From positions 1 through 59,032 of IMG/VR virus record IMGVR_UViG_3300025084_000024: a DNA stretch of 59,032 nt; one strand, given 5' to 3'. The DNA is from a virus. Lineage: Duplodnaviria > Caudoviricetes. The notes beneath the pieces were generated by a model. That model did no database searches. It was not told the origin of the DNA and worked only from the letters and a program-made list of their open reading frames with translations. The stretch's first letter is position 1; each line of letters starts with the position of its first letter. The translations under genes and the position numbers were made by a program. Of the stretch, positions 8,854 through 38,666 are shown piece by piece.

Positions 8854-9273
8854 ATGAATGAGTTAAAAGTTAGAGTTTTAACTGAAAATGATTGGGAAAC
8901 ACTATGCAGTTGGTGGTTAGAATGGCCGGATTGGAAAGTGCATCCTACTAAGGAAATGTTACCCTTAAATGGTATAGGTGGGTTTATGGTGGAAAATGAT
9001 AATAAACCAATTGTAGCAGGCTTTTTATATCTTACAAATTCTAACATAGCATGGCTAGAATGGATAATTTCAGATCCTAATTACAAAGAAATAAACAAAA
9101 GGCAAGCAATTGAACTTTTAATAACATCTGCAGAAAGTGCGGCTAGAAATCAAGGTAAAGAAGTAATTTTTAGCGTTAGCAGAAATAAAGCTTTATTAAA
9201 AATGCATAAAAAATTAGGATATACGGTAGATAAAGATCCTTCTTATGAAATAACTAAAAATATAAAAAATTAA
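8854..9273 (+). CDS. GNAT-family acetyltransferase-like protein
   Basis: 139 aa with a GNAT pattern ('IVAGFLY...WIISDPNY...KKLGY'). Lies between tail and ejection genes, as in many podoviruses. Confidence 0.7.
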   Translation: MNELKVRVLTENDWETLCSWWLEWPDWKVHPTKEMLPLNGIGGFMVENDNKPIVAGFLYLTNSNIAWLEWIISDPNYKEINKRQAIELLITSAESAARNQGKEVIFSVSRNKALLKMHKKLGYTVDKDPSYEITKNIKN

Positions 9274-9279
9274 TATAAT

Positions 9280-10020
9280 ATGGCAGCAGCAACACTAATA
9301 GCCGCGGGTATTGGAGCAGCAGGTTCAATAGCTGGATCAGCAATAGGAGCAAGCTCAGCAAGAAAAGCTAGAAAAAGTGCCGCTAAAAAAGAAGGTGCTT
9401 TAAAAAAAGAAATGGACGCAGCGGAAAGAAATAGAACCCCTGTAATAAATCCATATGAGGGTGTTAAAGATCTTTCATCTCAAATAGAAGATTTAAGTGG
9501 TAATTTAAGTAATCCTTATGATAATTTAGGTGTTGCAACTAAAGCTGCTGAAATACAGATGGAACAGAGCGATATTGCTCTTGCTAATACTTTAGATACA
9601 TTAGCTGCTACAGGGGCTAGTGCTGGCGGAGCGACTGCTTTAGCTCAAGCTGCTTTGGCTAGTAAAAAAGGGGTTGCTGCTACAATAGAATCTCAAGAAG
9701 CTAACAATGAAAAGCTAAGAGCTCAAGGAGAGGCTAGCTTACAAAGCGCTAAAATGGCAGAGGCTCAAAGAGTTCAAACCGCTCAATACGCTGAAGCTGG
9801 AAGATTACAACAAGCTGATGTTGCAGGAAGACAATATGAATTTGAACAACAAGATAGACGCGAAGAGCAACAGTTAAATAGACTACAAGCGCAAATAACT
9901 GGTCAACAACAACAGCAAGCAGCAGCAAGGCAACAAAGTGCTAATGCAATTGCAGGAGGAGTTTCAGGAATAACTGGAATAGCTGCAAGCGCAGCGGGAA
10001 ATTCTGAATTTGGGGTATGA
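9280..10020 (+). CDS. Internal virion / DNA ejection (pilot) protein
   Basis: Ala/Gly-rich hydrophobic N-terminus, Gln/Ala-rich coiled coil, and synteny. Confidence 0.65.
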   Translation: MAAATLIAAGIGAAGSIAGSAIGASSARKARKSAAKKEGALKKEMDAAERNRTPVINPYEGVKDLSSQIEDLSGNLSNPYDNLGVATKAAEIQMEQSDIALANTLDTLAATGASAGGATALAQAALASKKGVAATIESQEANNEKLRAQGEASLQSAKMAEAQRVQTAQYAEAGRLQQADVAGRQYEFEQQDRREEQQLNRLQAQITGQQQQQAAARQQSANAIAGGVSGITGIAASAAGNSEFGV

Positions 10021-10049
10021 TAATAATATTATTAAAATAAACAAAAAAA

Positions 10050-11462
10050 ATGGGTGCATACGAAAATCCGCAAACAGTCATAGTTGATACTTCTTCTGCT
10101 TGGACAAATATGTCTAAGTCGATTGCTAATACTACTGTAAAATTTTTAGAAAAACAAACAGAGGTACAAAATGAAAAGTTAAAAAAGCAGCAAAAAGAAG
10201 ATTTAGCGTACAGCCAAAGACTTGTAAAAAATTTAAATACTCAACAATCAAAATTATATGGTTTAGATATTGAAAAGCAAACTAATGATTTGTTTAATCA
10301 AACCATATCTGATAAGACTACATTAGAGTTAAATCTTGAAAAAGCTACTACTCCAGAAGAAAGAAGTATGTATGCTGCTCAATTAGGGGACTACAATAAT
10401 AGACTTAATCAAATATTAGATTTTGCTAAAAATAAAGATACGTTTAAAGAAAATTTTTTAGATAAAAATGACCCTACTTCAAGAAATGGAGAAGGGCAAT
10501 GGTCTATACAAGGTGTTGAAGATTATTCTGATTGGATTAATTATGGGCAAAACTACGCTGCTTCTACCACTAATAGTTTCTTAAGTTTTGATGAATTAGG
10601 TGAATTAAAAATAAATATAGCTAATCCTGAAAATCAAGAAGAATTTAAGTCTTGGGGCACAACTGATTTCTTTTCTAAACAACCTCCTATAACGCCTATG
10701 GTTTCTAAAGGTTTGAGTGAAAGACTTTTAGATAGAGGTATATTAAATTCTAAAACACCTGGTAAATTAGCAGATGAATATAACACAATGAAAAGAAATG
10801 TTATGGATGCGATGGTTATTTCAGATGTTATTGAACCTTACGCAGAAAGTATTTTAACAGATCCCGATGCTGCTCAATCAGTTTGGATTAATGTTTTAAA
10901 ACAACCTGGTTTACTTGAAATGGCTACTGAAGAAGAGGGCAGATTTCCTATAGAAGGAAGCCCTTTTTCAAAAGAAAGCGCTGAAAAATTTATTGAGGCA
11001 TTTAATAATTTTGCTAAAAGCAAACTACCTAAAAATCACCCCGTAGCTGTAAAAGCTGTAAAAGATAGAATAGAAACAGCAGAAGAAATTGTTGAAGAAA
11101 AATTTAATAATTATATAAAAGAATTAGATACTTCTTGGACTGATGTTACAGGAGAAACAGCATCATTTGATCCTAAAACAAATATGCTTACCGTAACAGT
11201 AGAAATGGAAAATGAAGATGGCGATATAATTACAGAACCAGAATTATATGATTTAAGCCAACCGGGTCAATTTACTAATTATATTAGGTTATTATTAGAT
11301 AAATCACCTGACTTGGGTAATGATATTAAAAGCAGGGAAATAAAAAGAAGTATATTAGAAAAAGCTAAAGTTAAAGAAAAAGAATACCTTGCTAAATCAA
11401 ATGGAGCTGATGATTACAAGGGGTTTGAAGATTATCTAACTGGTCAAATTAAAAAAGACTAA
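10050..11462 (+). CDS. Putative internal virion/ejection protein
   Basis: 470-aa helical protein between the pilot protein and the giant protein. Confidence 0.5.
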   Translation: MGAYENPQTVIVDTSSAWTNMSKSIANTTVKFLEKQTEVQNEKLKKQQKEDLAYSQRLVKNLNTQQSKLYGLDIEKQTNDLFNQTISDKTTLELNLEKATTPEERSMYAAQLGDYNNRLNQILDFAKNKDTFKENFLDKNDPTSRNGEGQWSIQGVEDYSDWINYGQNYAASTTNSFLSFDELGELKINIANPENQEEFKSWGTTDFFSKQPPITPMVSKGLSERLLDRGILNSKTPGKLADEYNTMKRNVMDAMVISDVIEPYAESILTDPDAAQSVWINVLKQPGLLEMATEEEGRFPIEGSPFSKESAEKFIEAFNNFAKSKLPKNHPVAVKAVKDRIETAEEIVEEKFNNYIKELDTSWTDVTGETASFDPKTNMLTVTVEMENEDGDIITEPELYDLSQPGQFTNYIRLLLDKSPDLGNDIKSREIKRSILEKAKVKEKEYLAKSNGADDYKGFEDYLTGQIKKD

Positions 11463-11465
11463 AAC

Positions 11466-11707
11466 ATGTTTAAAACATTAAATCATAATGGCAATAGTTT
11501 TGAATTTCCTGATAATGAAAAAGGAAAAAATGATTATGAAGCTTTTATTGCTAAATTTCCTGATGCTACAGAGGTAGCAATTACCCCCGATCCCGACGAA
11601 GAGGGAAAGGAAACCCCTTCACAGGAGACAGTGGATGCAACTGTGGAGGTAAGCGATACGGCATCCAACTTGGAAAATGGTTCTTCGGAATCACAAAAAA
11701 TAGATAA
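11466..11707 (+). CDS. Predicted 80-aa -1 frameshift product of the giant gene
   Basis: 48 shared N-terminal residues followed by GNPFTGDSGCNCGGKRYGIQLGKWFFGITKNR, with stop TAA at 11705-11707. Confidence 0.55.
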
Positions 11708-14700
11708 CAGCCCCGAAGCTATATTTAAAAGAAAAAAACAAAACGCATTAGATCAAGCAAAAGTTTATAGCCAGCCTATTGAGCTAGAAGAAGTTGTAGT
11801 AACTTTTGATCCTTCGGAAAGAACAACCGAAGATTTAATAGACGATATTACAAAAGTTGATGATAGAATAAAACTTATAGCGGGAGACGATATGCAAATA
11901 GATGCGTTGGATTCTCCTAAAAGAATAAAAGAATATGCAACTCTTGCGAACAGAAGAAAAGAAATAAATGATAATTTAAGAAGTAAACTTAAAGAAGAAG
12001 GCAGCGCAAAGTCTTTATTAAGATCATTAAAAAAAGGTGATAAAGCTTTAGGCGAATATTTGCTATCAGTGCCTTCTTTTATTTATGAAATAGGATCCTT
12101 AGTGAGTGATCCTGTTAATAGAGCTTTAGGATTACCTAAAACAGATTTAACAAAATTTGAAGAATCTATAGGAACTCGGTCTTTATTAGATTCTTTAATA
12201 GATGAACAAGAAAAGTTAGGTAAAATACAAGAAGAATATAAAGACTTAAATAATATAAAAGGAGGTATTGGGGAAAATTTTTCTAAAGGTAATATCAGTG
12301 AAGGCTTTTATTTGCTAGGAGAAACATTAGCAGAATCTGCACCTGTAAGCTTATCTTTAATGTTTGGAGGCGCTGCTGGTTTGTCGAGAACTGCTTTAAC
12401 ATTAGGAGGCGGTATTCCTTTAGCTGCCGGAGAAGTGAGAACTCAAAAAGAAGAATACCCTGATCAAGAAAAAGCAGAAATGCTTTTAAAATCAACTTTA
12501 ATTGGTTTATCAGAAGGATTTTTTGAAGGAGTATTTGGCAGCGGTGCTATAGGTAAAACATACAAAAATATTATTGCTAAAGAAGGCGTTGAACAAGGAA
12601 CTAAAACTTTTAAAGATGGAATTATTTCAATGTACGAAGGGGCCTTGCAAAAATTTGGTGTTCCTATTGCGGCTGTTTCTGGAGGATTAGAAGAAGTAGG
12701 AACTCAAATAACCCAAAATTTAGTTAATGGTAAGCCTTTTAATGAAGGCGTTACAGACGCGTTTTTAGCTGGTGTTGGCGGTGGAGGATTATATGGGGCG
12801 CCAGTTAATTTAGCTAAAGGAGTTGAATTAGGCCGTAATCTAATACAGGAAATAAAAGTAAATGCTGAAATAAAACCAACCGAGTATACAAATATCTCTT
12901 ATGCATTTGATCCTATAGAAAAAACTACTGAAACACAAATAAAATTATCTCAATTAAAAAATTCAGATAAGGTATTACAAAGAAGTGTAGATTCTGAAAT
13001 TAAAAAAGGAAATATTACACAAGAACAAGGTGATGCTATAAAATTAAACTTTAGAGAAACTCAAGGTGCTACAAATCAAATAAAGTCTTTAAAATTAAAT
13101 GAACAAGATCAGGCTACTACTGTTCAGTTAATGAAAGAAAAAAAGCAATTAAAAAATCAAATTGAGCAAGTAGGTGAGCCAAATTTAACTACTGAACAAT
13201 CCGATAGAATAAAGCAGATTGATGAAGACTTAAAAGGTATTAGCTCAAAAGCTGTAACTCAACAAGTTGAAAAAGTAAGAGAGGCAGCTAAAGATATTAC
13301 AGATTTAGATATTCAAGAGTTTGCTACTACAGCAGAAACAGAGGCTTTTTTAAGTGAGCAAGATCAAAATGTTAAAGCATCCGCTAACCAAGGGTTTATA
13401 ATTCAAAATAAAGATGGGAAGCAAACCATTGTAATAAATAGAGAAGTTGCAGATAAAGAAATAGCGGTTGCCGCTCCTGCTCATGAGTTTTTACATGCTA
13501 TTTTATATAAAACCGTTAAAGATTCTCCTAATACAGCTTTACAATTAGGTAACTCCTTAATGGAATATATTAGTAAGATTGATATAAATCAAGTTAAAGA
13601 TAGTAATTTTGCACAAAGACTTCAACAGTATCAAGATCAGCCCGCTGCAGTTCAAGCTGAAGAAGCTATTACTTTATTTTCTGATGCTATTTTAACAGGA
13701 GATATAAAATTTAAAGAAAATATATTTACTAAACTTCGAGATGTAATTTCTAAAATATTACAGGTTGGCGGAGTTAAAGCTAGATTTGATACAGGAAGAG
13801 ATGTATATAATTTTATTAGAGATTATAATAAAAATATACAAGAAGGTAAATTAACTAGCCAGCAAATAAAAACAGCTGAAGAAGGGGTTAAATTAGATAT
13901 TCAAGAACAAGCCGTTAAAAAAGCAGAAACAGTAGTTAGAGAATCAAGGTCTGAAGAGGCATCTAATAAAGTTCAAGAGCTATATGAACAAAAAGGTGTT
14001 AATGCAGCTGTAGAAATAATAGAGCAATTTAAACCTATAACTAATAAGATAGTAGAGCAACGTAAAAATGCTCCAGGCTTTGATAGACAATTACTTACTG
14101 ATGAAATTGAAACAGGTGCTGGTGGCATACTTGACTTAATACAAGCATATGATCCTGCATCTAACGTTCCTTTAGCGGCTTATATTAATAAATTTTTGCC
14201 CGTAAGAGCCATCACAGCATCTCGTAGAGTGTTAGATGAAGAGTTTGTAGGTGATATTACAGAAGCACCGCAGGTAGCTACTGAAGCTGCACCAGAAACA
14301 GAGGTTGAGGTTCCGCCCACTAAAACTAAAAAGCAAGTTAAAAAAGAAACACTTAGTGAAGAAAATCAACAAGCTCTTAAAGATGTTGTTACAGATTTAA
14401 AATTAACAGAAGATCAGCTTACTTTTAAAACATTACCTAATGCTGCTATAGAGGTATTTGCTAAGCAAATTGATATACCTGCTAAAAAGTTTGCTGGAAA
14501 GTCTAATTTTAGACAAGCAGAGCTTGATAAAGTAATAAACTTTATTGAAGAAAACATAGATATTATTAGACAAGCATTACCCGAAGCAGCTGTGTTAGAA
14601 GGCGCTTCTGTTAGCGAGGGTCTTATAGGCACCGCAACTGGTGTACCTAATAATTTACTAAAAGATTCTAATTTATATACACGTAAAGAAAGAACTACAA

Positions 14701-17700
14701 AAAGAGCGGGTATAGTTCCTTTTGAAAAAAATAAAGGTATTGATAATAGCTCAATCTTAAAAGCTATAGGTATTATTGAAGGCAAAAGAACTGCCGGGCC
14801 CAGAGATAAACAAGCTCAAACAGCTAAAGGATTAATTAATGTGCTCGCCAAGTTTGCTACAAATCAAGAAGTACGACAGCAAAAAGATTTAACTCCACAA
14901 CAAAAAACTGATATTGAAACTGGTAAAGGAAGTAGATTATTATTTAGCAGATCATTAAGCGAAGTTTTTGGACTATCCGCTAATGAAGCCTTTAGCTTTA
15001 GCAATATATCTGATATTAATTCTGGTAGAATTGAATTAAAGGATTTATCGTCTGCTATGATTAAAGATGTTGGTATTCAAGAATGGATAGATATTATAGA
15101 TCCTGTTATAAGTAGGCAATACAAAGTTGGTGATAAACAACTATTAGATAATAAAATTGGCTTTGAAGCACTTGAATTAACAGAAAAAGAATTTAATGAA
15201 AATAAAAATATATTATTAGAGCGTTCTACTATTGATGGTAAAAAAAGATATAATCAATTTTTAACTCGTGGTAGAAAAGATTATTATGAAAATATATTAT
15301 CTAGCGCTATAAATAAAGAAGTAAAATGGATTCCAAGAGAAGGTGTGGAAATTGATGGAACCATATATAAAACTCCTATAGTTCCTAAACAAACCCCTGA
15401 AGGATTTGTAAATAAAAAAGCATGGAATGCTTCTTTACCGGAACGAATAAAATTTGCAGAAAATCAACAGAAAGGATTTAAAAAAATAATACAAAAGCTT
15501 ACCAATACATATCAGAATTCTAATAAAAGCAAAAAAGATAAAGCAAAAGTTGGTATGGTATTAAATACTTTTAATTCTAATATTAATGGTTTAATTAGAA
15601 CAGCAGCCACCCCAGGATTAGAGTTTAGAGTAGAAAAATTAAATAAAGATTCTGATTATAGATACGAGCATACTCAACCTGCTTCGGAAACATTAAGACA
15701 ATTAGCAAAAATAATTATTGGAGATAAAAATGCTCAAACATATGAAGAAATAATGGAAAACTTTAGGGTTGCTATTATTCCAAAAATATATGATGATATT
15801 ATAAATAAAGTAAGATTTAATGGAAAATTATTAAGATCAACATCTCCTTTAGACGAAAATAAAAACTTACAAAAACCAGTTGAATCAACTAAACCAACTC
15901 GCTATGAAGCCGCGGCAAAAGCTATAGCAAATGCAGGATTAGCCCCATTAATATTAACCGATGCTATAGTACCCACAGATAAAGCTCAAGTAAAATTAAG
16001 CAAATCAAAATCTAAAGCTGCAGTAAAAAACAATTTAGAATTACCTAAATCTCAACGCTTACCTAAAGGCAGCACTAATGAACAGGTATTAGCTAAAATG
16101 CAAGAGCTTGATAATGAAGCTAATGAAGCTAGAATTAAATACAGCAAATCACAAAACTTAGATGAAGCATTCAATGATATTATAGAAGCTAAAACTGGCA
16201 TTGAAACATATAAAAGATTTTCGCCGGCTAAAGCAGCTGTAAGAGGAGCAAGTAAAGGTAAATTTAATTTCTTTATCCCACCTAGTGCTGAAGACTTTAC
16301 AGGGTTATTATATAAAACATTAGCTAAAGGTAAATTGGGGGATAGACAAATGCAATGGTATAAAGATAATTTATTAGATCCTTATGCTAGAGCAATGAAT
16401 GATATATCCGCTGCCCGTGTAGCTATGTTTGAAGATTATAAATCACTTAAAAGTGATTTAGAAATTATTCCTAAAGATCTTAAAAAGAAAAGTGTTGATG
16501 AATATACAAGAGAACAAGCTGTAAGAGTTTATATATGGAATGATCAAGGTGATAATGTACCTGGTTTATTTAAAACAGATCAAAAGGATTTAGTTAATTA
16601 TGTAAATAATGATACTGAGCTTAAGCTGTTTGCAGAGCAACTTATAGCTATTCAAAAAAACGATGAATATTCTGCTCCTAAAGAAGGATGGCTTGCGGGC
16701 AGTATTACAACAGATTTATTAGAAGGCGTTAATTCTATTAAAAGAAAAAAATATTTAGAGCAGTGGCAAAATAATGCAGATGAAATATTTTCTGATGTTA
16801 ATATGAACAAATTAGAGGCAGCATTTGGAAAGCCTTATAGAAAAGCTTTAGAAAATATTCTTACAAGAATGAAAACGGGTAGAAATAAACCGTTTACAAG
16901 CGATTCACTTGCAGGTAGAGTTACCGACTGGTTAAATAATTCTGTTGGAGCGATCATGTTTTTTAATACACGATCTTCTGTATTACAAACAATATCGTCA
17001 ATTAACTTTGTTAACTGGAGTGATAATAATATTTATCAAGCTGGTAAAGCTTTTGCTAATCAACCACAATATTGGAAAGACTTTAAATTTTTATTTAATT
17101 CTGACTTTTTAAAAGAAAGGCGCGGAGGTTTAAGATTTAATGTAAGTGAATCTGAAATAGCTGATGCAGCTAAAAAAGGTGGTGCAAGGGGTGTTATAAG
17201 TAAAATACTTCAGGCTGGATTCCTACCTACGCAAATGGCGGACAGTTTTGCAATTGCATCAGGTGGAGCTACATTTTATAGAAATAGAGTTAAATCTTAT
17301 ATTAAAGAAGGATTAACAGAAACTGAAGCACAAGAAAAAGCATTTTTAGATTTTAGAGAAATAGCTGAAGAATCACAGCAGTCATCAAGACCCGATAGAA
17401 TTAGTGCACAACAAGCAGGGCCATTAGGGCGCACCATATTAGCTTTTGCAAACACACCGGCGCAATATGCTAGATTAACTAAAAAAGCCGCTAGTGATCT
17501 TATAAATGGCCGTGGTGATGCTAAAACAAATATATCTAAGCTACTTTATTACGGTGTAGTGCAAAATTTAATATTTAACACTTTACAGCAAGCGGCATTT
17601 GCAATTGCATTTGGTGATGATGATGAAGATGAAAAGAAAAAAGAAGAAAAATACATAAGTGTAGCTAATGGAATGGCAGACGGTTTACTCAGAGGTATTG

Positions 17701-18158
17701 GTGTTGGCGGTGCCGTAATCTCTACATTAAAGAATACTTTAATTAAAATTATTAAAGAATCAGAAAAGAAACGGCCCGATTATGCTGAAACTGCTGTAAT
17801 ACAATTATTAGGTATATCTCCACCTATTCAATCAAAAGCTCAAAAAATAAGGAGTGCTTTAAAATCTTATGAGTGGAATAAAGACGAAATGAAAGAAAAA
17901 GGATTTAGCTTAGATAATCCCGCTTATTTAGCAGGAGCTAATGTTATATCTGCAGCAACAAATATACCTCTTGATAGAGTTGTAAAAAAAGTAAACAACG
18001 TTAGAGCAGCCACAAGAGATGATATATCTAAACCGGAAAGAATGATGTTATTAGCAGGCTGGTCGGATTGGCAATTAGGTATACAAAAAGAAAAGGAAGT
18101 TAAACCTAAAAAGAAAAAAAAGCGTAAGCTTAAAAGAGTAACAAAAGGACAAAGATAA
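11466..18158 (+). CDS. Giant multi-domain internal virion (ejection/polyvalent) protein with a zincin HExxH motif and a sigma-region-2-like domain
   Basis: 2230 aa. Gly-rich hydrophobic segment, HEFLH at aa ~673-677, sigma-2-like segment at aa ~846-923, basic C-terminus. Confidence 0.7.
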   Translation: MFKTLNHNGNSFEFPDNEKGKNDYEAFIAKFPDATEVAITPDPDEEGKETPSQETVDATVEVSDTASNLENGSSESQKIDNSPEAIFKRKKQNALDQAKVYSQPIELEEVVVTFDPSERTTEDLIDDITKVDDRIKLIAGDDMQIDALDSPKRIKEYATLANRRKEINDNLRSKLKEEGSAKSLLRSLKKGDKALGEYLLSVPSFIYEIGSLVSDPVNRALGLPKTDLTKFEESIGTRSLLDSLIDEQEKLGKIQEEYKDLNNIKGGIGENFSKGNISEGFYLLGETLAESAPVSLSLMFGGAAGLSRTALTLGGGIPLAAGEVRTQKEEYPDQEKAEMLLKSTLIGLSEGFFEGVFGSGAIGKTYKNIIAKEGVEQGTKTFKDGIISMYEGALQKFGVPIAAVSGGLEEVGTQITQNLVNGKPFNEGVTDAFLAGVGGGGLYGAPVNLAKGVELGRNLIQEIKVNAEIKPTEYTNISYAFDPIEKTTETQIKLSQLKNSDKVLQRSVDSEIKKGNITQEQGDAIKLNFRETQGATNQIKSLKLNEQDQATTVQLMKEKKQLKNQIEQVGEPNLTTEQSDRIKQIDEDLKGISSKAVTQQVEKVREAAKDITDLDIQEFATTAETEAFLSEQDQNVKASANQGFIIQNKDGKQTIVINREVADKEIAVAAPAHEFLHAILYKTVKDSPNTALQLGNSLMEYISKIDINQVKDSNFAQRLQQYQDQPAAVQAEEAITLFSDAILTGDIKFKENIFTKLRDVISKILQVGGVKARFDTGRDVYNFIRDYNKNIQEGKLTSQQIKTAEEGVKLDIQEQAVKKAETVVRESRSEEASNKVQELYEQKGVNAAVEIIEQFKPITNKIVEQRKNAPGFDRQLLTDEIETGAGGILDLIQAYDPASNVPLAAYINKFLPVRAITASRRVLDEEFVGDITEAPQVATEAAPETEVEVPPTKTKKQVKKETLSEENQQALKDVVTDLKLTEDQLTFKTLPNAAIEVFAKQIDIPAKKFAGKSNFRQAELDKVINFIEENIDIIRQALPEAAVLEGASVSEGLIGTATGVPNNLLKDSNLYTRKERTTKRAGIVPFEKNKGIDNSSILKAIGIIEGKRTAGPRDKQAQTAKGLINVLAKFATNQEVRQQKDLTPQQKTDIETGKGSRLLFSRSLSEVFGLSANEAFSFSNISDINSGRIELKDLSSAMIKDVGIQEWIDIIDPVISRQYKVGDKQLLDNKIGFEALELTEKEFNENKNILLERSTIDGKKRYNQFLTRGRKDYYENILSSAINKEVKWIPREGVEIDGTIYKTPIVPKQTPEGFVNKKAWNASLPERIKFAENQQKGFKKIIQKLTNTYQNSNKSKKDKAKVGMVLNTFNSNINGLIRTAATPGLEFRVEKLNKDSDYRYEHTQPASETLRQLAKIIIGDKNAQTYEEIMENFRVAIIPKIYDDIINKVRFNGKLLRSTSPLDENKNLQKPVESTKPTRYEAAAKAIANAGLAPLILTDAIVPTDKAQVKLSKSKSKAAVKNNLELPKSQRLPKGSTNEQVLAKMQELDNEANEARIKYSKSQNLDEAFNDIIEAKTGIETYKRFSPAKAAVRGASKGKFNFFIPPSAEDFTGLLYKTLAKGKLGDRQMQWYKDNLLDPYARAMNDISAARVAMFEDYKSLKSDLEIIPKDLKKKSVDEYTREQAVRVYIWNDQGDNVPGLFKTDQKDLVNYVNNDTELKLFAEQLIAIQKNDEYSAPKEGWLAGSITTDLLEGVNSIKRKKYLEQWQNNADEIFSDVNMNKLEAAFGKPYRKALENILTRMKTGRNKPFTSDSLAGRVTDWLNNSVGAIMFFNTRSSVLQTISSINFVNWSDNNIYQAGKAFANQPQYWKDFKFLFNSDFLKERRGGLRFNVSESEIADAAKKGGARGVISKILQAGFLPTQMADSFAIASGGATFYRNRVKSYIKEGLTETEAQEKAFLDFREIAEESQQSSRPDRISAQQAGPLGRTILAFANTPAQYARLTKKAASDLINGRGDAKTNISKLLYYGVVQNLIFNTLQQAAFAIAFGDDDEDEKKKEEKYISVANGMADGLLRGIGVGGAVISTLKNTLIKIIKESEKKRPDYAETAVIQLLGISPPIQSKAQKIRSALKSYEWNKDEMKEKGFSLDNPAYLAGANVISAATNIPLDRVVKKVNNVRAATRDDISKPERMMLLAGWSDWQLGIQKEKEVKPKKKKKRKLKRVTKGQR
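11603..11667 (+). promoter_or_regulatory. Programmed -1 ribosomal frameshift signal (slippery heptamer + H-type pseudoknot)
   Basis: In-frame G GGA AAG (11603-11609), 6-nt spacer, stem 1 11616-11624/11641-11649 (9 bp), stem 2 11632-11638/11661-11667 (7 bp). Confidence 0.75.
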
Positions 18159-28870: not shown

Positions 28871-29623
28871 TTACAGATAATCAAGCACTTGCGAACTATC
28901 TACGTTGTCAATTAGTTTTTGTATTGCTGCTTTTTTAATTTCGGATACTCTTACGTAAGAACTAGGTCCTTCAATACCTATAATCTTTGCGATGTCATTA
29001 GCAGAATGCTTATCGCAATCCAATCCGTAAGATAAGCGTAATACTTCATATTCTTTTGGATTTAAGTTCTTTTTTAGTATACTTTTTAAATATATATTAA
29101 GCATACCTAAATTATATGGTTCAGATCTGTCTGGCACTTGATCAAAATAACTTTCTTCGTTATCAATTTGTTCGTCTATACTTAAAAATATACTATTAAA
29201 AAATATTTCAACTATTTTTTTATCCTCAGGATTTTGGCGCATTTCGTTTAATCTATGTTCTGGTATACGTATATGTCCTCTAGTTATATCTATTGATCTG
29301 CGTATTGCACCTTTAATTCTTTTAGATAGAAAAGATTTAATTGTTTTTTCAGGATCTTCTGATTCAACTATCTTACTCATTTCTATTTTATCAACTGCAG
29401 CAACTAATCCTTTACTTCCTTCTTGTATAAGGTCAGTTATATCTAATATACCTGATGCTTGTTGTGATGTTGCAAATTTATGTGCCATGTTTTCTACTAA
29501 TGGTAAGAATCTTATGATTAGCTCATCTCTAGTGTAAAGATCATACGTTTGTTTATCTTCTGGCATACTGTTTTGTAAATCAGTTTTATACCGAATGTAG
29601 TTCTTTACATTATATTTTTTCAT
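28871..29623 (-). CDS. Phage sigma-70-family factor
   Basis: Region 2 'LIIRFLPLV..DLIQEGSKGL..RIKGAIRR..IRIP'. Region 4 'LNPKEYEVLRLSYGL..DIAKIIGI..RVSEIKKAAIQKL'. Confidence 0.92.
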   Translation of the reverse strand: MKKYNVKNYIRYKTDLQNSMPEDKQTYDLYTRDELIIRFLPLVENMAHKFATSQQASGILDITDLIQEGSKGLVAAVDKIEMSKIVESEDPEKTIKSFLSKRIKGAIRRSIDITRGHIRIPEHRLNEMRQNPEDKKIVEIFFNSIFLSIDEQIDNEESYFDQVPDRSEPYNLGMLNIYLKSILKKNLNPKEYEVLRLSYGLDCDKHSANDIAKIIGIEGPSSYVRVSEIKKAAIQKLIDNVDSSQVLDYL

Positions 29624-29627
29624 GTGC

Positions 29628-30242
29628 TTAAATCATAGAGTTCAATAAATTTTTTTCGGTTTTTAATTGGTTATCAAGGTTTCTGTACACGGTTCGGGTT
29701 GAACAGCCAAGCATCCGTGCGATGGTTTGAACTGTTATGCATTCATGCATATCGTGTATAGCATTCATGCATTCATATATATTTTCTTTTGTTGCAATCT
29801 TAGATCGACCAATTAGTTTGCCTACAATACTTAACTTTTCTGATCGGGTTAACCCAGTAATATCATTGAATATTATTTTACGCGATTTATTTTTTGGTGG
29901 TCGTTCCAAATCTAATTTATAAATGTCATTAATAATACTCATCAATATATCCTCAGATATTTCAAAGGTAATAAAATTATTTGGTTTATATGCAATATGT
30001 TTGCATAAACTTTTAAATCCTTGCTCTGATAGGTTAGGATTTAAATATGTTAACACAAGTAAATGCCATTTCAAAGATCTATATGTATTGATCTTAGCTT
30101 TGCTTCTGAATAGTTCGTAACATTCATGCGTGCCGTCTTTATAAAACTTTCCCCATTCAAATACATTAGAAGGTTTATCTGTAACTGGATCTCTCCGATA
30201 TATTATTCTATTATTATTTAAATATTCCATCCTGCGTGACAT
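29628..30242 (-). CDS. HTH DNA-binding protein, possibly a Rep-like replication initiator
   Basis: C-terminal 'TIARMLGCSTRTVYRNL' HTH preceded by 'EKLSIVGKLIGR'. The start may be at 30230. Confidence 0.7.
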   Translation of the reverse strand: MSRRMEYLNNNRIIYRRDPVTDKPSNVFEWGKFYKDGTHECYELFRSKAKINTYRSLKWHLLVLTYLNPNLSEQGFKSLCKHIAYKPNNFITFEISEDILMSIINDIYKLDLERPPKNKSRKIIFNDITGLTRSEKLSIVGKLIGRSKIATKENIYECMNAIHDMHECITVQTIARMLGCSTRTVYRNLDNQLKTEKNLLNSMI

Positions 30243-30918: not shown

Positions 30919-31390
30919 GTTTAAATTGTTTATCATCAATTATATTATCAAGTTGACTACGTAAAACATCTGTAAATTTATGCCCCATTGATTCCATTTT
31001 AATTAAACAATTACGGGTAAAGGTATACATTTCTTTATTTTGTAATAATTTAATTCTATATTTATCACGGTAGAATCTATTAGGATCAATGCTTTTAACT
31101 TGCAATCGCATTTTATTATCCAACTGTTCTTTTAGTTTTAAATATTTATTGTGATAATTTTTTTCCCATAAAGGATTAATTACATTTTCAAATAATTTAA
31201 GACCGTGAATAACGGTTGCGTGATCTTTGCTTACTGTTCTTCCAATAGAAGTTAATGATTCTCCTGAATAATCTTGAGCTAATTTATAATAAATTGCTCT
31301 GGGATACACTACATCACGTCGGCGTGTAGTTTCTTGTATTCTTTTATTAAATGCGTTGTTTACTGCGTTTCTAATAGCTATCGAGTTCAT
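30908..31390 (-). CDS. DnaA C-terminal (domain IV) HTH-like protein
   Basis: 'RRRDVVYPRAIYYKLA..SLTSIGRTVSKDHATVIHGLK' matches the DnaA domain IV signature. Confidence 0.85.
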   Translation of the reverse strand: MNSIAIRNAVNNAFNKRIQETTRRRDVVYPRAIYYKLAQDYSGESLTSIGRTVSKDHATVIHGLKLFENVINPLWEKNYHNKYLKLKEQLDNKMRLQVKSIDPNRFYRDKYRIKLLQNKEMYTFTRNCLIKMESMGHKFTDVLRSQLDNIIDDKQFKHDN

Positions 31391-31505
31391 GTGGTTTTGT
31401 TTTTGCGTGTGGGTTAATAGTTGGTTGTTTCCATTTATATCCTAATATGGGATGTATTTTGTAATCGTGTACATCCGAAAACATTAATTCTTTTTCTTTT
31501 TTCAT
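31371..31505 (-). CDS. 44-aa hypothetical protein, not in the ORF track
   Basis: MKKEKELMFSDVHDYKIHPILGYKWKQPT..., coupled (TAATG) to the upstream ORF. Confidence 0.5.
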   Translation of the reverse strand: MKKEKELMFSDVHDYKIHPILGYKWKQPTINPHAKTKPHELDSY

Positions 31506-31711
31506 TATACTATTTCTAAATTAAGTTCATGTGCTACGTAATTAATGTGTCTGCTTGTTGTAGGACTGCTTGCGCCTACGCCATCTACCCACCAAGGCAT
31601 TTTCTTTAGTGTGTTACCGTAGATTGTTGCAACGTGTGTATCATATGAAATAATTGCGTCGCCACATCTTTTAAGGTTTTGTTTGTATCTGTCAAATCTT
31701 ACTGGTCTCAT
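31505..31711 (-). CDS. Hypothetical early protein
   Basis: 'ISYDTHVATI...SPTTSRHINY' motif recurrent in small phage proteins. Confidence 0.65.
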   Translation of the reverse strand: MRPVRFDRYKQNLKRCGDAIISYDTHVATIYGNTLKKMPWWVDGVGASSPTTSRHINYVAHELNLEIV

Positions 31712-31929
31712 AGTTTTATAAATGTTAATGGTTTAATATATTTGTTAATGAATTTGCCAATTGATTCAGCATTGCGCATGCCTTCAAACATAAAGGGTTC
31801 AACGCTTTTGTAAAGGTATTCTCGGTTGTTTACAAATGTAAGCGTGAGCTCACTGGTTTCGTAGTTGTACTCCGCAAGTTTAATTGCTGCAGAGTTTACA
31901 TTGATTCTTTCTTTAATTAGTTTTTTCAT
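31708..31929 (-). CDS. KTSC-domain protein
   Basis: 'VNSAAIKLAEYN..LTLTF..EYLYKSV..AESIGKFINKYIK'. Confidence 0.88.
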   Translation of the reverse strand: MKKLIKERINVNSAAIKLAEYNYETSELTLTFVNNREYLYKSVEPFMFEGMRNAESIGKFINKYIKPLTFIKL

Positions 31930-32137
31930 GGTTATTTAATTTTATTATATTATCAAGGGTCTTGCGTGTTAATTCTGCAGATGGTATTCCGTCTACAATA
32001 TCTGTTGTTATATCTTTGGGGTAATGTTTTAATATGTTTTGAATTACCCCGTCAAGTACATGATCATCCAGCTCGTTGTTGAGTGTGTAGTGATCAGTTT
32101 TATTTTTATACGTTACAGATAGCTTACTCAGTCCCAT
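31913..32137 (-). CDS. Hypothetical early protein
   Basis: 74-aa ORF. Confidence 0.5.
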   Translation of the reverse strand: MGLSKLSVTYKNKTDHYTLNNELDDHVLDGVIQNILKHYPKDITTDIVDGIPSAELTRKTLDNIIKLNNHEKTN

Positions 32138-32453
32138 CGTCGTCTATATTTTCGCTTAGCCATCTTTCAATCTCAGACTCGTCCATGTATTCATCTACGT
32201 CATCCATAAGGATTCTAGCCTCAGGAATATCTTCAGCTACCTGCACAATGCGTTCCATGATAGTATCAAAGTCAGGTTGATAGTAGTATACATCATTTTC
32301 CCAGTTGAGGCAGCCAGGGTCTTCGGTTAAAATATAAACGTTGTATCCGTCTGCTGTCATGTACTCAGTTAATTGTAAATCATTATCACAATAGTCGTCA
32401 AAGTTTGTAATGGTTATATTTAGATGTTGTTCTAGTCTTTCTAATGGTGTCAT
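32124..32453 (-). CDS. Highly acidic early protein (possible DNA mimic)
   Basis: 109 aa, strongly Asp/Glu-rich with few basic residues. Confidence 0.65.
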   Translation of the reverse strand: MTPLERLEQHLNITITNFDDYCDNDLQLTEYMTADGYNVYILTEDPGCLNWENDVYYYQPDFDTIMERIVQVAEDIPEARILMDDVDEYMDESEIERWLSENIDDDGTE

Positions 32454-32482
32454 AATTTTTGGTTTTAAGGTTTATAATATTG

Positions 32483-32551
32483 TACGGAGGAGGAGGAACA
32501 TTACCCTCGCTTTATCTCGAGATTTTATTTGCCCGTCGGCAATCCCCCGTA
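32483..32551 (-). ncRNA. Candidate 69-nt multi-stem structured RNA
   Basis: GC-rich intergenic island. 9-bp closing stem TACGGGGGA/TCCTCCGTA encloses hairpins TTGCC/GGCAA and GAGGG/TCCTC. Strand inferred from local transcription direction. Confidence 0.45.
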
Positions 32552-32583
32552 GTTGATTACACATATATGTATGTGTATAGCAT

Positions 32584-32799
32584 TTAGTCTTCGACCTGTT
32601 CAGGTGCTTTGTATTTGTTATCAATGTAGTCAATCAATCTTACCGTGAAGTATTCGATTAAGTCATTGCCTTCAAAGCCATCATCAAGTAATGGTTTAAG
32701 CTTTTCAATGTTGTAGTCAAACGCCCAGTCGTCAACTAAACCTCTCATGCGTTCGTGCTTTCTTTTAAGTTCTAAATAGTTTTCTAGTTTGTTACTCAT
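32584..32799 (-). CDS. Hypothetical early protein
   Basis: 71 aa, downstream of motif copy 32826. Confidence 0.6.
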   Translation of the reverse strand: MSNKLENYLELKRKHERMRGLVDDWAFDYNIEKLKPLLDDGFEGNDLIEYFTVRLIDYIDNKYKAPEQVED

Positions 32800-32846
32800 A
32801 ATTATTATTTTTTAGATTCATATATATTATCAATAGCCTTGCGTAT

Positions 32847-32999
32847 TTATTCTGTAAGAGCGTGAGCTATCTTAAGTAATTCAACTGTGCTTTCGTGTTC
32901 GGCTTCAACACGCCATGAGTTCTTTTCCTTTACTTCTAATCTCCAACTATTCATATTGAACCCACCTCGGATCTGCCAGTCTTGTATGTTTCTTTTCAT
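32847..32999 (-). CDS. 50-aa early protein, not in the ORF track
   Basis: MKRNIQDWQIRGG...AHALTE. The stop lies inside the promoter motif. Confidence 0.55.
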   Translation of the reverse strand: MKRNIQDWQIRGGFNMNSWRLEVKEKNSWRVEAEHESTVELLKIAHALTE

Positions 33000-33166
33000 T
33001 TTGTTACGCGTTTAATTAATGTAAATAATATTTGTTGCTTTACTTTTAGTTCGAGTTCATTAACATCTGGGTAGTTAGTTCCATCCAATGTCCAGTGGAC
33101 TGTCTTGTTAATATAATTTTCAATATCATCTGTGCACTCTTGTGCAAATCTTTCAACTGCTTTCAT
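32996..33166 (-). CDS. 56-aa early protein, not in the ORF track
   Basis: MKAVERFAQECTDDIENY..., ATGA-coupled on both sides. Confidence 0.6.
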   Translation of the reverse strand: MKAVERFAQECTDDIENYINKTVHWTLDGTNYPDVNELELKVKQQILFTLIKRVTK

Positions 33167-33309
33167 CCTATATATTCTAATAAGTTTTTAATCTTCTTTA
33201 AATTCTTGTGTGCAATTTGTGCATTCATAAAGTGTGCATAGTCTGGGCCAAGTTCAACCAGATCATCGATCGTTTGGCGTAGCTCATAGAGTTTGTCTTT
33301 TGTTTTCAT
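33163..33309 (-). CDS. 48-aa early protein, not in the ORF track
   Basis: MKTKDKLYELRQTIDDLVELG..., ATGA-coupled. Confidence 0.6.
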   Translation of the reverse strand: MKTKDKLYELRQTIDDLVELGPDYAHFMNAQIAHKNLKKIKNLLEYIG

Positions 33310-33310
33310 A

Positions 33311-33457
33311 TTATTTGTTCTTTAAATATATATTATAATCTTCTTTTACTTTATCTAATACCCTGCTTAAATCTTGTGGGTCATAATCAAAGGTTGAAAC
33401 TTTCATCCAGTGTGCAACGGATTCTAAGGATTCAATTGCTTGTTCTTTATTTGTCAT
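33311..33457 (-). CDS. 48-aa early protein, not in the ORF track
   Basis: MTNKEQAIESLESVAHW..., tightly packed between neighbours. Confidence 0.55.
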   Translation of the reverse strand: MTNKEQAIESLESVAHWMKVSTFDYDPQDLSRVLDKVKEDYNIYLKNK

Positions 33458-33468
33458 AGTGTATAATA

Positions 33469-33729
33469 TTATGTTCCGCTATAGCCCCAGGCCCCAGCTT
33501 CACTGTTTAAATATTCATCTTGCATTTTATCAAGCTCAACCTTAGTATCATACTTAGATACATGTTCTCTAATAGTATCAACAGCCTCAGAAATATCATC
33601 GAAGTTGATGTGTGTATGTGCTGACGGTCTTTTAAGTATTACCGTGGCACCCAGTGAACTGATCTTATTACCCATATAGTCATAAGTACCAAGCTTAAAG
33701 TCATATTTTTCGTTTGATAAGTTTTTCAT
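33469..33729 (-). CDS. Hypothetical early protein
   Basis: 86 aa, downstream of motif copy 33818. Confidence 0.6.
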   Translation of the reverse strand: MKNLSNEKYDFKLGTYDYMGNKISSLGATVILKRPSAHTHINFDDISEAVDTIREHVSKYDTKVELDKMQDEYLNSEAGAWGYSGT

Positions 33730-33858
33730 TTGTAAAGGTGTTAAGTTATTTGTATATATTTTTTTTAGGTTAGTTATAATGCATAATCAGTATGCACATA
33801 TATAATTATTTATAATTATTATCGGGTTGATTACGTATTTATTCTGTAAGCTTCCTGA

Positions 33859-33907
33859 GTGCGACATTAGGTACTTAATATAGATTAATAACAGGCTATT
33901 GTCACAC
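33859..33907 (+). promoter_or_regulatory. ~50-bp quasi-palindromic element, copy 2
   Basis: GTGCGACATTAGGTACTTAATATAGATTAATAACAGGCTATTGTCACAC. Confidence 0.75.
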
Positions 33908-33949
33908 ACTTTAATCGTGTTGGAATTTTGGATTCGATGTTATGAAATC

Positions 33950-34057
33950 TAATTCACTTTTCCACTGTTCAGGTGTTATTTGTTTTTGCATTGCTTTAAG
34001 GTATAGACTGGTGACGTCTACATTATATCCATCTTTACTTTTAATTGTTACCATCAT
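33950..34057 (-). CDS. 35-aa early protein, not in the ORF track
   Basis: MMVTIKSKDGYNVDVTSLY..., directly downstream of motif copy 34075. Confidence 0.5.
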
Positions 34058-34094
34058 AGTTTTATATTTATTATATTATCAGATCATTAACGTA

Positions 34095-34289
34095 TTATTT
34101 TTGTAAAGTCTCTTTTATATCTTCAAGTTCTACTAGGTCTTGGTTGATTAAGAATGATAATTCTCTGTTATCATTTTTCATTATATATTCTATTAGATCT
34201 AATCTATCTGTGATATCATAGTGACTTTCATCGTTATAAATTTGGATTAAAGAATTGTAAACTTCATCTCTGTCAATAGTGTGTGTCAT
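34095..34289 (-). CDS. Acidic hypothetical early protein
   Basis: 64 aa. Motif upstream, stop inside the next motif. Confidence 0.6.
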   Translation of the reverse strand: MTHTIDRDEVYNSLIQIYNDESHYDITDRLDLIEYIMKNDNRELSFLINQDLVELEDIKETLQK

Positions 34290-34333
34290 AATTTTATATT
34301 TTAAGTTTATTATATTATCAAGTCAAGGACGTA

Positions 34334-34510
34334 TTATTTCTGTAAGGACTCACTTTGGTCGACGACGGAGGTGAGGTTCAGATCGATCTTCTCGATGACT
34401 TCGTTTACGTGTTCTTCAAATTTTGGTGGCACATCGTCTTTGTGTCGATTTATTAATAGGTCTTCAACTGCGTACCTCATCAGGTTCAATTCGTTCTTTG
34501 TAAATTTCAT
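34334..34510 (-). CDS. 58-aa early protein, not in the ORF track
   Basis: MKFTKNELNLMRYAVEDLL...ESLQK. Stop inside motif copy 34314. Confidence 0.55.
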   Translation of the reverse strand: MKFTKNELNLMRYAVEDLLINRHKDDVPPKFEEHVNEVIEKIDLNLTSVVDQSESLQK

Positions 34511-34511
34511 A

Positions 34512-34634
34512 TTATATATTTTTATTATAGTTATAATTCATTAGTGCCATGTGTGCATCCCAGAGCTCGTCGGCTTCTTCTTGTCGTTCGGGATCGTGTT
34601 CGATTAGTCGGTATTTTTCTAGGTATTCACTCAT
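34512..34634 (-). CDS. 40-aa early protein, not in the ORF track
   Basis: MSEYLEKYRLIEHDPERQEEADELW..., downstream of motif copy 34648. Confidence 0.5.
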   Translation of the reverse strand: MSEYLEKYRLIEHDPERQEEADELWDAHMALMNYNYNKNI

Positions 34635-34668
34635 ATTATTTTATATTATTATCAATTGTATTACGTAT

Positions 34669-34830
34669 TTATTCTGTAACCTCTATCACTTCTTTTATTT
34701 CGTCTAAGCCCCATTTTGCAGCTGCATATTTAGTTGCTTCCATTATACTATTAGCTCTTACATAACTATAGAAGTTTCTTAAATTTCTTTTTGAATCTAT
34801 CCAATGTGATTCTTTAATTACTTTGTACAT
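34669..34830 (-). CDS. 53-aa early protein, not in the ORF track
   Basis: MYKVIKESHWIDSKRN...IEVTE. Bounded by two motif copies. Confidence 0.55.
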   Translation of the reverse strand: MYKVIKESHWIDSKRNLRNFYSYVRANSIMEATKYAAAKWGLDEIKEVIEVTE

Positions 34831-34883
34831 ATCTTTTATTTTATATTATTATCAAATTAGTTGCGTATTATTTCTGTAAGGTT

Positions 34884-35084
34884 TTAGATTAGATCTGGAT
34901 TTGCATTAGGTTGTAAGTGATATACTCTATAGTAGTATTCTTCTATACTTTCATTATATTTCATTTCTATTGTACTTTCAACATAAATTAAATTTTCATT
35001 TTTAATTTGTTCTTCACTTCCATAGTAATTTGGTAAATGAATCTTTTCCATTTCGTTTAGTATTAAACTTGTTAGATCTAGCAT
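34884..35084 (-). CDS. Hypothetical early protein (first gene of the minus arm)
   Basis: 66 aa, downstream of motif copy 35113. Confidence 0.6.
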   Translation of the reverse strand: MLDLTSLILNEMEKIHLPNYYGSEEQIKNENLIYVESTIEMKYNESIEEYYYRVYHLQPNANPDLI

Positions 35085-35144
35085 AGTATTTATATTTATT
35101 AGTTACATTTATATTATCAAATGGATAACGTATTATTTCTGCAA

Positions 35145-35400
35145 ACTTTCAAAATAGTTTTCAAATGAAAAAGATCAAAAAGTACGTGATTTTTCTGTAA
35201 AACCTAAAACCTTCCGTGTTTTTTCTGTAAAAAAGGGGGAACCCGGTAAAACTAAAACAACTTTCTGTAAAGTACTGGTACTCAAATATATACATACAAC
35301 ACAAAATCTATACATATCTAACGTATTTTTTAACCCAGTGTGACGTTAGGTAGTTATAAATACTTTAGTAGTAGGCTAATGTCGCATACGATGTAAAATT
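35145..35400. other. Divergent non-coding control region (candidate physical end / origin)
   Basis: Longest non-coding stretch, at the strand switch. Contains TTTCTGTAAA x3, a GGGGG run and quasi-palindrome copy 3. Confidence 0.55.
35338..35387 (+). promoter_or_regulatory. ~50-bp quasi-palindromic element, copy 3
   Basis: GTGTGACGTTAGGTAGTTATAAATACTTTAGTAGTAGGCTAATGTCGCAT. Confidence 0.75.
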
Positions 35401-36214: not shown

Positions 36215-37243
36215 ATGGCAATAATTTATTCATACCCTCAAGCAACACCAACTGCTTCAGACTTACTAATCGGTACACTACTATCGGATGATAGTGGAGA
36301 AAATCCAACAAAATCATTTACTATAGCGGATATTATTGGTTTGGTACCCGCAGCCGGAACAGGAGGGACAGTTACATCAATAGGCCTAACTAATACAGAT
36401 GGTTTTTTAACAATTCAAAACACTCCTATAACTACAGCTGGTAATATAGGGGTTAATCTTTTTACATCGGGAGGTACCCCCGGGGCTACTACATTCTATA
36501 GAGGAGATGGCCAATGGGCCGAGCCGACTGGAACAGGTACACAGGTAACTTACACTATACAATCACAAACTAACGGTCCTAACATTGACATAGAGCTTTT
36601 AGATGATCCATCAACAAACCCAACAACTGTAACTTTAATACCGGGGAATGATATAGCTTTAGTCAATGCATCAAATGAAATAACAATTGCATCTGAGGCT
36701 GTTTCAACGGTGGTTGGTGGTACTTTTATAAATGTTGATTCTACTAATACACTAAGCCCTATAGTAAATTTATCCGCAACCGGCACCCCTGATGCTACCA
36801 GCTTTTTAAGAGGAGACAATACCTGGGCTGTTCCTAGTGGCGGAGGCGGTGGAGGAAGCATGAGCTCCTGGGATTTATTAGCAGACACCGGAACCACTCA
36901 AAATATTACTGATGGTGAAGATGTAAAACTTATTGGTGGCTCTGGTATTAGCACAGCTGTAGCGGATAATGCAGGTGTTGCTGAAGTAACAATAAATTTA
37001 TCAGGCACAGCGGTAGGTAGCTTAACCACGGCAGCTACAACATATGACAATTCAGCGGATGCTTTAAATGTTTCCGCATCTGGTAATGACTATACCATTA
37101 ATGCTAAAAATGTTATTACCCCCGGAGTTAATCCAGTGGGAACTCCGACAATATCTCAAATAAGAAACATAGTTTCTCTTACATCCGCTCAATATACAGC
37201 AATCACAACAAAAGATCCAAACACACTTTATATAGTAGTATAA
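36215..37243 (+). CDS. Short tail/head fibre protein
   Basis: N-terminus paralogous to ORF 38667, FxRGDxxW repeats, C-terminal 'QYTAITTKDPNTLYIVV'. Confidence 0.75.
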   Translation: MAIIYSYPQATPTASDLLIGTLLSDDSGENPTKSFTIADIIGLVPAAGTGGTVTSIGLTNTDGFLTIQNTPITTAGNIGVNLFTSGGTPGATTFYRGDGQWAEPTGTGTQVTYTIQSQTNGPNIDIELLDDPSTNPTTVTLIPGNDIALVNASNEITIASEAVSTVVGGTFINVDSTNTLSPIVNLSATGTPDATSFLRGDNTWAVPSGGGGGGSMSSWDLLADTGTTQNITDGEDVKLIGGSGISTAVADNAGVAEVTINLSGTAVGSLTTAATTYDNSADALNVSASGNDYTINAKNVITPGVNPVGTPTISQIRNIVSLTSAQYTAITTKDPNTLYIVV

Positions 37244-37244
37244 T

Positions 37245-38639: not shown

Positions 38640-38666
38640 AAATAAAAAAAATAAAAAACATATAAA

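Follow-up and report, generated by a model that had tools for sequence, protein, structure and literature searches.

The known routes to early phage transcription use the unmodified host holoenzyme or an injected polymerase of the phage's own. The second route is taken by N4-like, crAss-like and phiKZ-like phages. The crAss-like phages carry their polymerases in the virion. Phage sigma factors are free proteins of 170-300 aa; T4 gp55, a late sigma factor, consists of region 2 only. Here, we describe a 59,032-bp virus record (IMG/VR record IMGVR_UViG_3300025084_000024; "the window" denotes this whole stretch). It contains a giant open reading frame (ORF), P0001 (11466..18158, + strand), identified from the ORF list and its translation. 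The encoded 2230-aa protein is a candidate polyvalent, ejection-type virion protein. Embedded at aa ~825-1040, and without a Pfam or hidden Markov model (HMM) match, is a sigma-like module. Phage sigma-70-family factors, including two-domain extracytoplasmic function (ECF)-like ones, are similar in their predicted region 2 fold and in the order region 2-like domain, linker, candidate helix-turn-helix. A first-pass annotation had proposed that the module is injected to redirect the host polymerase.

The giant ORF also resembles the polyvalent proteins (Iyer et al. 2017, PMC5512222) in its giant multi-domain form, zincin hub and swapped cargo. According to that paper, a zincin-like peptidase is the hub domain of polyvalent proteins from phages and plasmids, and is proposed to process them. 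The paper also proposes that domains are released by autoproteolysis, either ahead of delivery or following it, and a stated theme is that delivered cargo may "jump-start transcription". The word "sigma" is absent from its main text, where the known cargo for transcription is an entire polymerase, as in N4-like phages. Here, the cargo would be a sigma module.

Short-tailed phages encapsidate three ejection proteins, encoded together, according to PMC13434306. The N4 set consists of gp52 (150 aa), gp51 (644 aa) and the polymerase gp50 (3500 aa). Like the gene for gp50, the giant ORF is the largest of three consecutive genes that end the structural genes of a phage with a predicted short tail. 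The role proposed here, starting early transcription right after ejection, would also be alike. Unlike the virion polymerases of N4 and crAss-like phages, the giant ORF has no polymerase motif, and its sigma-like part would need host core polymerase. A further parallel is pro-sigmaK with SpoIVFB, in which a sigma-like domain lies in a larger precursor beside a metalloprotease motif (PDB 8vjl_B was among our Foldseek rows). In the giant ORF, the protease motif sits in the same polypeptide, the precursor is a 2230-aa virion-type protein and cleavage is only presumed. In the literature that we searched, as listings and passages, no paper reported a sigma domain within a virion or ejection protein, which is no proof that none is in print.

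A sigma region 2-like domain in the giant protein

The domain resembling sigma-70 regions 1.2 and 2 spans aa 825-924 (13938..14237, + strand), as delineated using AlphaFold2 (AF2), Foldseek, ESM Atlas and hhalign. The peptide that the first-pass annotation had quoted as sigma region 2-like is present exactly (aa 850-921, nt 14013-14228). The likeness holds for the predicted fold and for the language-model neighbours of the sequence. The AF2 model covers aa 800-1100 and was built from 13 aligned sequences (36-86% identity). Many columns of the region 2-like domain are invariant across these sequences. Confidence of the model, as pLDDT (predicted local distance difference test), was 80-90 over aa 809-924.

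Foldseek comparison with the PDB, a check that the first-pass annotation had suggested, returned mostly sigma proteins. Of the 48 rows listed, 37 were sigma chains or chains of complexes between RNA polymerase (RNAP) and sigma. Sigma identity is explicit in few of the titles; otherwise, it was deduced from chain letter and length, and we took "RPSD" and "RPSH" to mean sigma D and sigma H. The isolated N-terminal domain of SigE (8b3z_C) aligned with prob 0.92, TMt 0.67 and a root mean square deviation of 2.8 over 75 columns. For an RpoS region 1.2-2 fragment (5h6x_A), TMt was 0.62. The remaining 11 rows were mostly designed helical repeat proteins. In BFVD, a library of viral structures, the top two matches were phage sigma factors (E 8.9e-3, prob 0.99; E 3.2e-2, prob 0.98). 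Among 50 BFVD rows, 12 were named sigma factor and 3 further ones "DNA directed RNA polymerase subunit".

We also searched ESM Atlas with aa 820-950. Sigma70_r2 clusters made up 18 of 30 neighbours, with a score of 0.96; shuffled proteins reach 0.95 about once in 100. Shared-feature counts were 140-159 of 256, which fits a distant relative. In hhalign, the domain aligned with region 2 of group 1-3 sigma factors together with the phage's own sigma family (P 0.0063) in the expected register, and the reversed query did not (P 0.25). Briefly, aa 847-911 fall onto regions 2.1-2.3 and a helix at ~aa 877-895 falls onto the core-binding helix of sigma.

The giant ORF did not reach significance with the Sigma70_r2 profile; the region 2 fold is present in its predicted model. 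Likewise, a PHROGs search with the giant protein found no sigma factor. On the model, the language-model neighbours and the hhalign alignment together, the domain very probably has the sigma region 2 fold. Its sequence has drifted past the reach of HMMs. We conclude that the sigma-like module is real, conserved and highly divergent, and more than a chance resemblance.

An acidic linker and a region 4-like part follow

C-terminal to the domain is a disordered, Pro/Glu-rich acidic linker (aa 925-961; 14238..14348, + strand). This agrees with the first-pass annotation, and is evident from composition and from pLDDT values below 50 (segment residues 127-162). Next comes a helical part with a candidate helix-turn-helix, placed by hhalign and Foldseek at aa 962-1040 (14349..14585, + strand). 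The first-pass annotation had described a weak region 4-like stretch here, and both strings that it cited were located: "LSEENQQAL" begins at aa 963 and "FAKQIDIP" at aa 998. Aligned with 38 distinct relatives, aa 955-1050 matched a sigma region 4 alignment with P 0.0012 (prob 19%) and with the helix-turn-helix in register; the reversed control gave P 0.24. Both halves of the module are thus collinear with sigma and in register. Foldseek alignments to ECF-like phage sigma factors of ~200 aa span 200-240 columns. Six-frame scans with PF04545 and PF08281 gave no match at the region 4-like site. We regard the helix-turn-helix after the linker as weakly supported; the language-model search and the variability of this part among relatives, described below, do not agree with it.

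The module lies beside a zincin-like peptidase motif

The zincin-like metallopeptidase region comprises aa 640-800 (13383..13865, + strand), with HExxH at aa 673-677 and two glutamates at aa 732-733. The HExxH at aa 673 is the sole one in the giant protein. All 112 relatives that were aligned share H673, E674, H677, E732 and E733. As the first-pass annotation had it, the motif precedes the sigma region 2-like domain, which follows directly on its C-terminal side. The match to Pfam DUF3267, "putative zincin peptidase", is weak (E 0.052) and under the cut-off. The HExxH region also resembles that of Elemovirus gp18 (E 0.015). At motif level, the giant ORF has the HExxH and downstream glutamate of the zincins in polyvalent proteins.

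Conservation, cargo and spread of the giant protein

The giant protein has more than 1066 metagenomic relatives of 1226-3903 aa; among the 120 listed, none carries an informative name. We compared it with 88 divergent relatives. Conservation is concentrated in two blocks, aa 600-960, containing the HExxH region and the sigma region 2-like domain, and aa 1540-2200, with variable sequence in the first 600 residues and in aa 960-1540. Identity over aa 841-920 is 69-74% in these relatives, and 20-45% in their variable parts. The C-terminal block (16083..18065, + strand) has a coverage of 0.88-0.97 and an identity of 0.5-0.88. Its AF2 model is poor (mean pLDDT 50.7), and Foldseek with this model returned generic helical matches only (prob <=0.12), with the PhiM1 ejectosome chain 8vb2_A at rank 36.

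Inserts in the variable middle differ between relatives. In P0079 (aa 1455-1617), P0003, P0021 and P0041, the insert is either DUF6934 or a P-loop kinase resembling AAA_33 or zeta toxin. On the sequences, these differing inserts amount to cargo swapping. The giant ORF and its relatives thus combine unrelated domains with varying cargo, and the predicted architecture fits the polyvalent protein pattern. Searches with the whole giant protein against Pfam and PHROGs gave no match, nor did the protein or gene match any of 50,697 phage records (tblastn, megablast).

The N-terminal part contains a Gly/Ala-rich hydrophobic region (aa 280-470; 12303..12875, + strand) with weak similarity to Elemovirus gp18 and phi38:1 gp101. 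For aa 286-634 against Elemovirus gp18 residues 523-898, E was 5e-4; the match to phi38:1 gp101 had E 0.17. A membrane role for aa 280-470 is conceivable; on the Kyte-Doolittle scale, the highest 19-residue window of the region stays below 1.4.

We searched 1.84 billion proteins with a profile of aa 800-1100. This found 407 representative clusters at E<=1e-3, with 342 at <=1e-10 and 232 at <=1e-30. Among the best 150 of the 407, every entry is either a giant protein (up to 3294 aa) or a fragment. A strongly diverged version of the region 2-like domain, with an insertion, occurs in P0021, in P0028 and at aa 836-970 of the giant ORF of a related genome, G004 (L039). P0021 and P0028 nevertheless share the region 4-like part of the window. 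By eye, the G004 version shares the pattern of the domain in the window. An hhalign comparison of the P0021/P0028 variant (two sequences) with sigma region 2 alignments and with the window-type domain was not significant (P 0.52, 0.58 and 0.043).

No polymerase domain was found in the giant protein

The first-pass annotation had found no RNAP motif of the DxDGD type, and this was borne out. A single D.D.D occurs in the giant protein, within an acidic low-complexity run at aa 2051. No polymerase domain was found on searching Pfam with the whole protein. The PF00940 search gave no match and is uninformative, as its control likewise matched in no genome. Since a sigma gene is present and no polymerase was matched, the phage presumably depends on host core polymerase. 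A complex prediction paired the sigma region 2-like domain (A1, residues 20-135) with residues 200-400 of Swiss-Prot RPOC_FLAJ1. Run with no controls and with a guessed clamp-helix range, it gave 0.25 and 0.19 against a mark of 0.32, which weighs neither for nor against binding.

The giant ORF closes the structural module

Three consecutive genes of rising size close the structural module: 9280-10020 (246 aa), 10050-11462 (470 aa) and the giant ORF, 11466-18158. This is the arrangement of podovirus ejection genes, with the last gene the largest. By position, the two upstream genes (9280..11462, + strand) are candidates for smaller ejection proteins; searches of PHROGs and Pfam gave no match for either. 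An endolysin-like gene directly follows the giant ORF.

Syntenic giants are phi38:1 gp101 (1691 aa) and Elemovirus gp18 (3694 aa; L009, 16852-27936), both annotated "structural protein", and an ORF of 3859 aa in MW202828 (L006, 741-12320). The Elemovirus and MW202828 giants, from the nearest cultured and uncultured relatives, are ~1500 aa longer than the giant ORF. No significant similarity to the giant protein was found for phi38:1 gp101 or the MW202828 ORF, and all three giants are without the sigma-like domain. By gene position and synteny with genes annotated structural, the giant protein is a putative virion protein. Comparison with known ejection proteins revealed no similarity of sequence (PHROGs) or fold (Foldseek with the poor C-terminal model).

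A standalone sigma factor and an early promoter-like motif

The window also encodes a standalone sigma factor of the sigma-70 family (250 aa; 28871..29623, - strand), which the first-pass annotation had missed. Pfam matches to Sigma70_r2 (E 6e-4) and Sigma70_r4 (E 3e-4) were both under the cut-offs; six-frame scans also identified the gene. Its metagenomic relatives number at least 8000 and bear the JGI name "sigma-70 family". Searching the phage collection with the protein by tblastn left the Elemovirus and MW202828 records unmatched. An adjoining gene (29628-30242, - strand) encodes a 204-aa protein that has a helix-turn-helix in its C-terminal part and weakly matches Sigma70_r4_2. Both genes lie just downstream of the early gene cluster.

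Analysis of repeat families, with copies read along the direction of transcription, identified a cluster of bipartite, early promoter-like motifs before small ORFs (30919..35230, - strand). Each motif has an upstream half of ~16 nt, a spacer of ~10 nt and a -10-like half in which TG precedes TAATAT by two bases. The motif sits 10-35 nt before the small ORFs, with 9-11 copies in the window, those at 34345 and 34879 (minus strand) among them. The upstream half has 12 matches in the whole window, compared to 1.6 expected, and 9 of the 12 are at 32.8-35.2 kb on the minus strand. We also looked for TTTG...TAnnTTTG, which we take to be the Bacteroidetes-type promoter consensus. This had 9 matches, compared to 3.7 expected (9 was reached in 2 of 100 shuffles), and none of the 9 was seen at the early motif sites. 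By eye, no late-promoter motif shared by plus-strand genes was seen upstream of them; a 20-nt repeat is present in just two exact copies.

The giant protein and the standalone sigma factor are both encoded in 3 of 3 near-complete genomes examined (the window, G003 and G004). G003 has 8 copies of the same motif (39.3-41.7 kb), the same region 2-like domain and a standalone sigma factor that is 96% identical. G004 also has 8 copies (L037, 0.7-6.0 kb), with the -10-like half and spacing kept and a different upstream half. Its region 2-like domain is strongly diverged, the segment following it is different and the standalone sigma factor is 64% identical. To judge by these sequences, the bipartite motif is a conserved promoter class of the phage group. 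For covariation between module and promoter, G004 alone was usable. The contig of G005, which has a P0021-type module, starts at the ERF gene and is without the early region; G006 and G007 are fragments. The G004 comparison fails to discriminate between module and standalone sigma factor because the latter differs too.

Genome setting

The window is 93% complete according to CheckV, with a G+C content of ~31%. The structural genes run across the window end into its start, with terminase at 51559-53778 and portal at 53783-56197. Genes for replication (ribonucleotide reductase, primase/helicase, ERF and exonuclease) are on the minus strand. Terminase and portal each matched 87 phage records: Flavobacterium 68, Cellulophaga 15, Tenacibaculum 2, Maribacter 1 and one uncultured "Podoviridae sp.". 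Because these records are mostly from Flavobacterium and Cellulophaga, the phage presumably infects a Flavobacteriia host and has podovirus morphology. A link to Flavobacteriia had already been assumed in the first-pass annotation; the nearest cultured relatives by terminase and portal do infect this class. Comparing the module with bacterial genomes matched only short contigs in two metagenome-assembled genomes (MAGs), labelled Parvibaculum and Arcobacter. These contigs are probably mis-binned phage DNA and hence give no evidence of the host.

Other features were noted. A G+C-richer island (36215-43885, + strand; 0.38-0.41 compared to ~0.31) spans tail-fibre-like genes. The products of two of these (342 aa and 1419 aa) carry the Pfam Phage_tail_C tip domain at their end, and the island may thus be a module for host recognition that was exchanged or acquired. 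A GroEL-like chaperonin gene (45453-47006, + strand; phrog_5725, E 1e-132) is also present in Cellulophaga phage phi38:1. Within the structural module, a small acetyltransferase-like gene (8854-9273, + strand) matches phrog_17252 and, weakly, the acetyltransferase phrog_1249. It is syntenic with an MW202828 gene annotated as an N-terminal acetyltransferase subunit.

Discussion

The best single reading of our data, and a tentative one, is that a giant multi-domain internal virion protein delivers a sigma module with the DNA. The order of domains would be a variable N-terminal part with the Gly-rich region, the zincin motif, the sigma-70-family module, a variable cargo segment and the conserved C-terminal block. 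The module would itself consist of the region 2-like domain, the disordered acidic linker and the weaker region 4-like helix-turn-helix. The giant protein would be packaged and would leave the virion together with the DNA, as does the third and largest of the ejection proteins in short-tailed phages. The module, possibly cut out by the adjacent peptidase, would bind the beta' clamp helices of host core RNAP. It could then start transcription at the early promoters (30.9-35.2 kb, minus strand). The standalone sigma factor, encoded downstream of the early genes, would be made only later. What we observe directly is a likeness to sigma at the level of the fold, a conserved module and peptidase motif, and the place of the gene; we infer packaging, ejection, cleavage, polymerase binding and promoter reading. 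Injection of a sigma factor is thus plausible but unproven. The first-pass annotation had proposed both a virion ejection protein and an injected sigma factor. Its first part gains from the gene being the last of a podovirus-type structural module, and its second has to contend with the standalone sigma factor as a rival promoter reader.

Some of our results weigh against delivery of a sigma factor, and several suit other explanations. At the level of the fold, Foldseek with the AF2 model gave 0 matches at E<=1e-3 in the PDB, and all E-values in BFVD were also above 1e-3. Pfam searches with the whole protein and three sub-segments, at E<=10, found no sigma factor. Neither did phmmer or the 13-sequence family profile when run against PDB sequences. 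In the six-frame scan of the genome with PF04542, the match was solely in the separate, standalone sigma gene (29297-29521, - strand). With hhalign, comparison to 10 bacterial sigma region 2 segments (from two MAGs and mostly of ECF type) gave P 0.52; as a positive control, the phage's standalone sigma factor scored E 2e-6 with the same alignment. The domain could be a bundle of helices that serves structure or packaging within the capsid or the ejection channel; it would then resemble sigma only remotely or by convergence and be unrelated to transcription. This would account for the lack of a significant sequence-profile match and for Foldseek E-values of 0.009-1.6, since structural matches by chance are common for small domains made of helices. 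The absence of the domain from the syntenic giants of Elemovirus, MW202828 and phi38:1 also suits a helical bundle. However, the PDB rows other than sigma were few and mostly designed repeats, and the language-model search, which is independent, retrieved Sigma70_r2 for most neighbours. Furthermore, both halves align with sigma in register and order, and the reversed controls fail. We consider a mere helical bundle unlikely.

The second half of the module is less secure. The five short helices modelled after the linker have modest confidence (pLDDT 47-75). ESM Atlas, queried with aa 955-1055, returned chance-level matches only (0.80 to an unrelated family). Among relatives, several different sequences occupy the region 4-like place. 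Of 126 matches to the module among shorter proteins, the six that we read look truncated or split, so no clear free form was found. The standalone sigma factor is a serious competitor for the early promoters: given initial expression from a host-type promoter, it could itself recognise the early motif. In G004, the -10-like half is unchanged despite the diverged domain, which, if anything, does not favour the module as its reader. The module may bind host RNAP via its region 2-like face and be no specificity factor. It would then be a decoy that displaces host sigma for shut-off, or a tether at the DNA entry channel, where transcription by the tethered polymerase would help to draw in the genome. 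Reading of the early motif would fall to the standalone sigma factor or to host holoenzyme. Strong conservation in the region 2-like half only, the variable region 4-like half, a full standalone sigma factor and the constant -10-like half of G004 would all be expected of such a binder. Conversely, positions aligned to sigma regions 2.3-2.4 show the same invariance as the core-binding helix, which a mere binder would not need, and the region 4-like signal is colinear. We judge a pure binder to be somewhat unlikely. Lastly, location in the virion rests on the annotation of other records, of which only the Elemovirus gene is weakly similar. The giant protein could instead be an unpackaged, late-made cytoplasmic protein, with the module acting in the producing cell in late transcription or as an anti-sigma-like regulator. 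That no structural family in PHROGs or Pfam matches the protein is compatible with this. In contrast, its gene ends the structural operon and is syntenic with genes annotated structural in phi38:1 and Elemovirus. The polyvalent architecture, with zincin hub and cargo swapped among relatives, and a size within the range of ejection proteins also argue for a virion protein. A cytoplasmic role is improbable.

Implications for phage transcription

In its full form, delivery of a sigma module would mean that an abundant group of ~60-kb marine phages injects a zincin-processed region 2/region 4 module, which fires early promoters without new protein synthesis. We hold this extended proposal to be possible, if doubtful. 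The mechanism would concern a common marine phage group because 407 clusters of the module, and the at least 8000 relatives of the standalone sigma factor, occur in public metagenomes. If true, it would be a third route to the start of phage transcription, beside host holoenzyme and an injected whole polymerase. It would also be an economical intermediate, with ~220 residues of cargo compared to a polymerase of thousands. Sigma would join the effector domains of polyvalent proteins, and the variant modules of relatives would reflect exchanges of promoter specificity. Finally, it would explain how phages of Bacteroidota use early promoters unlike those of the host.

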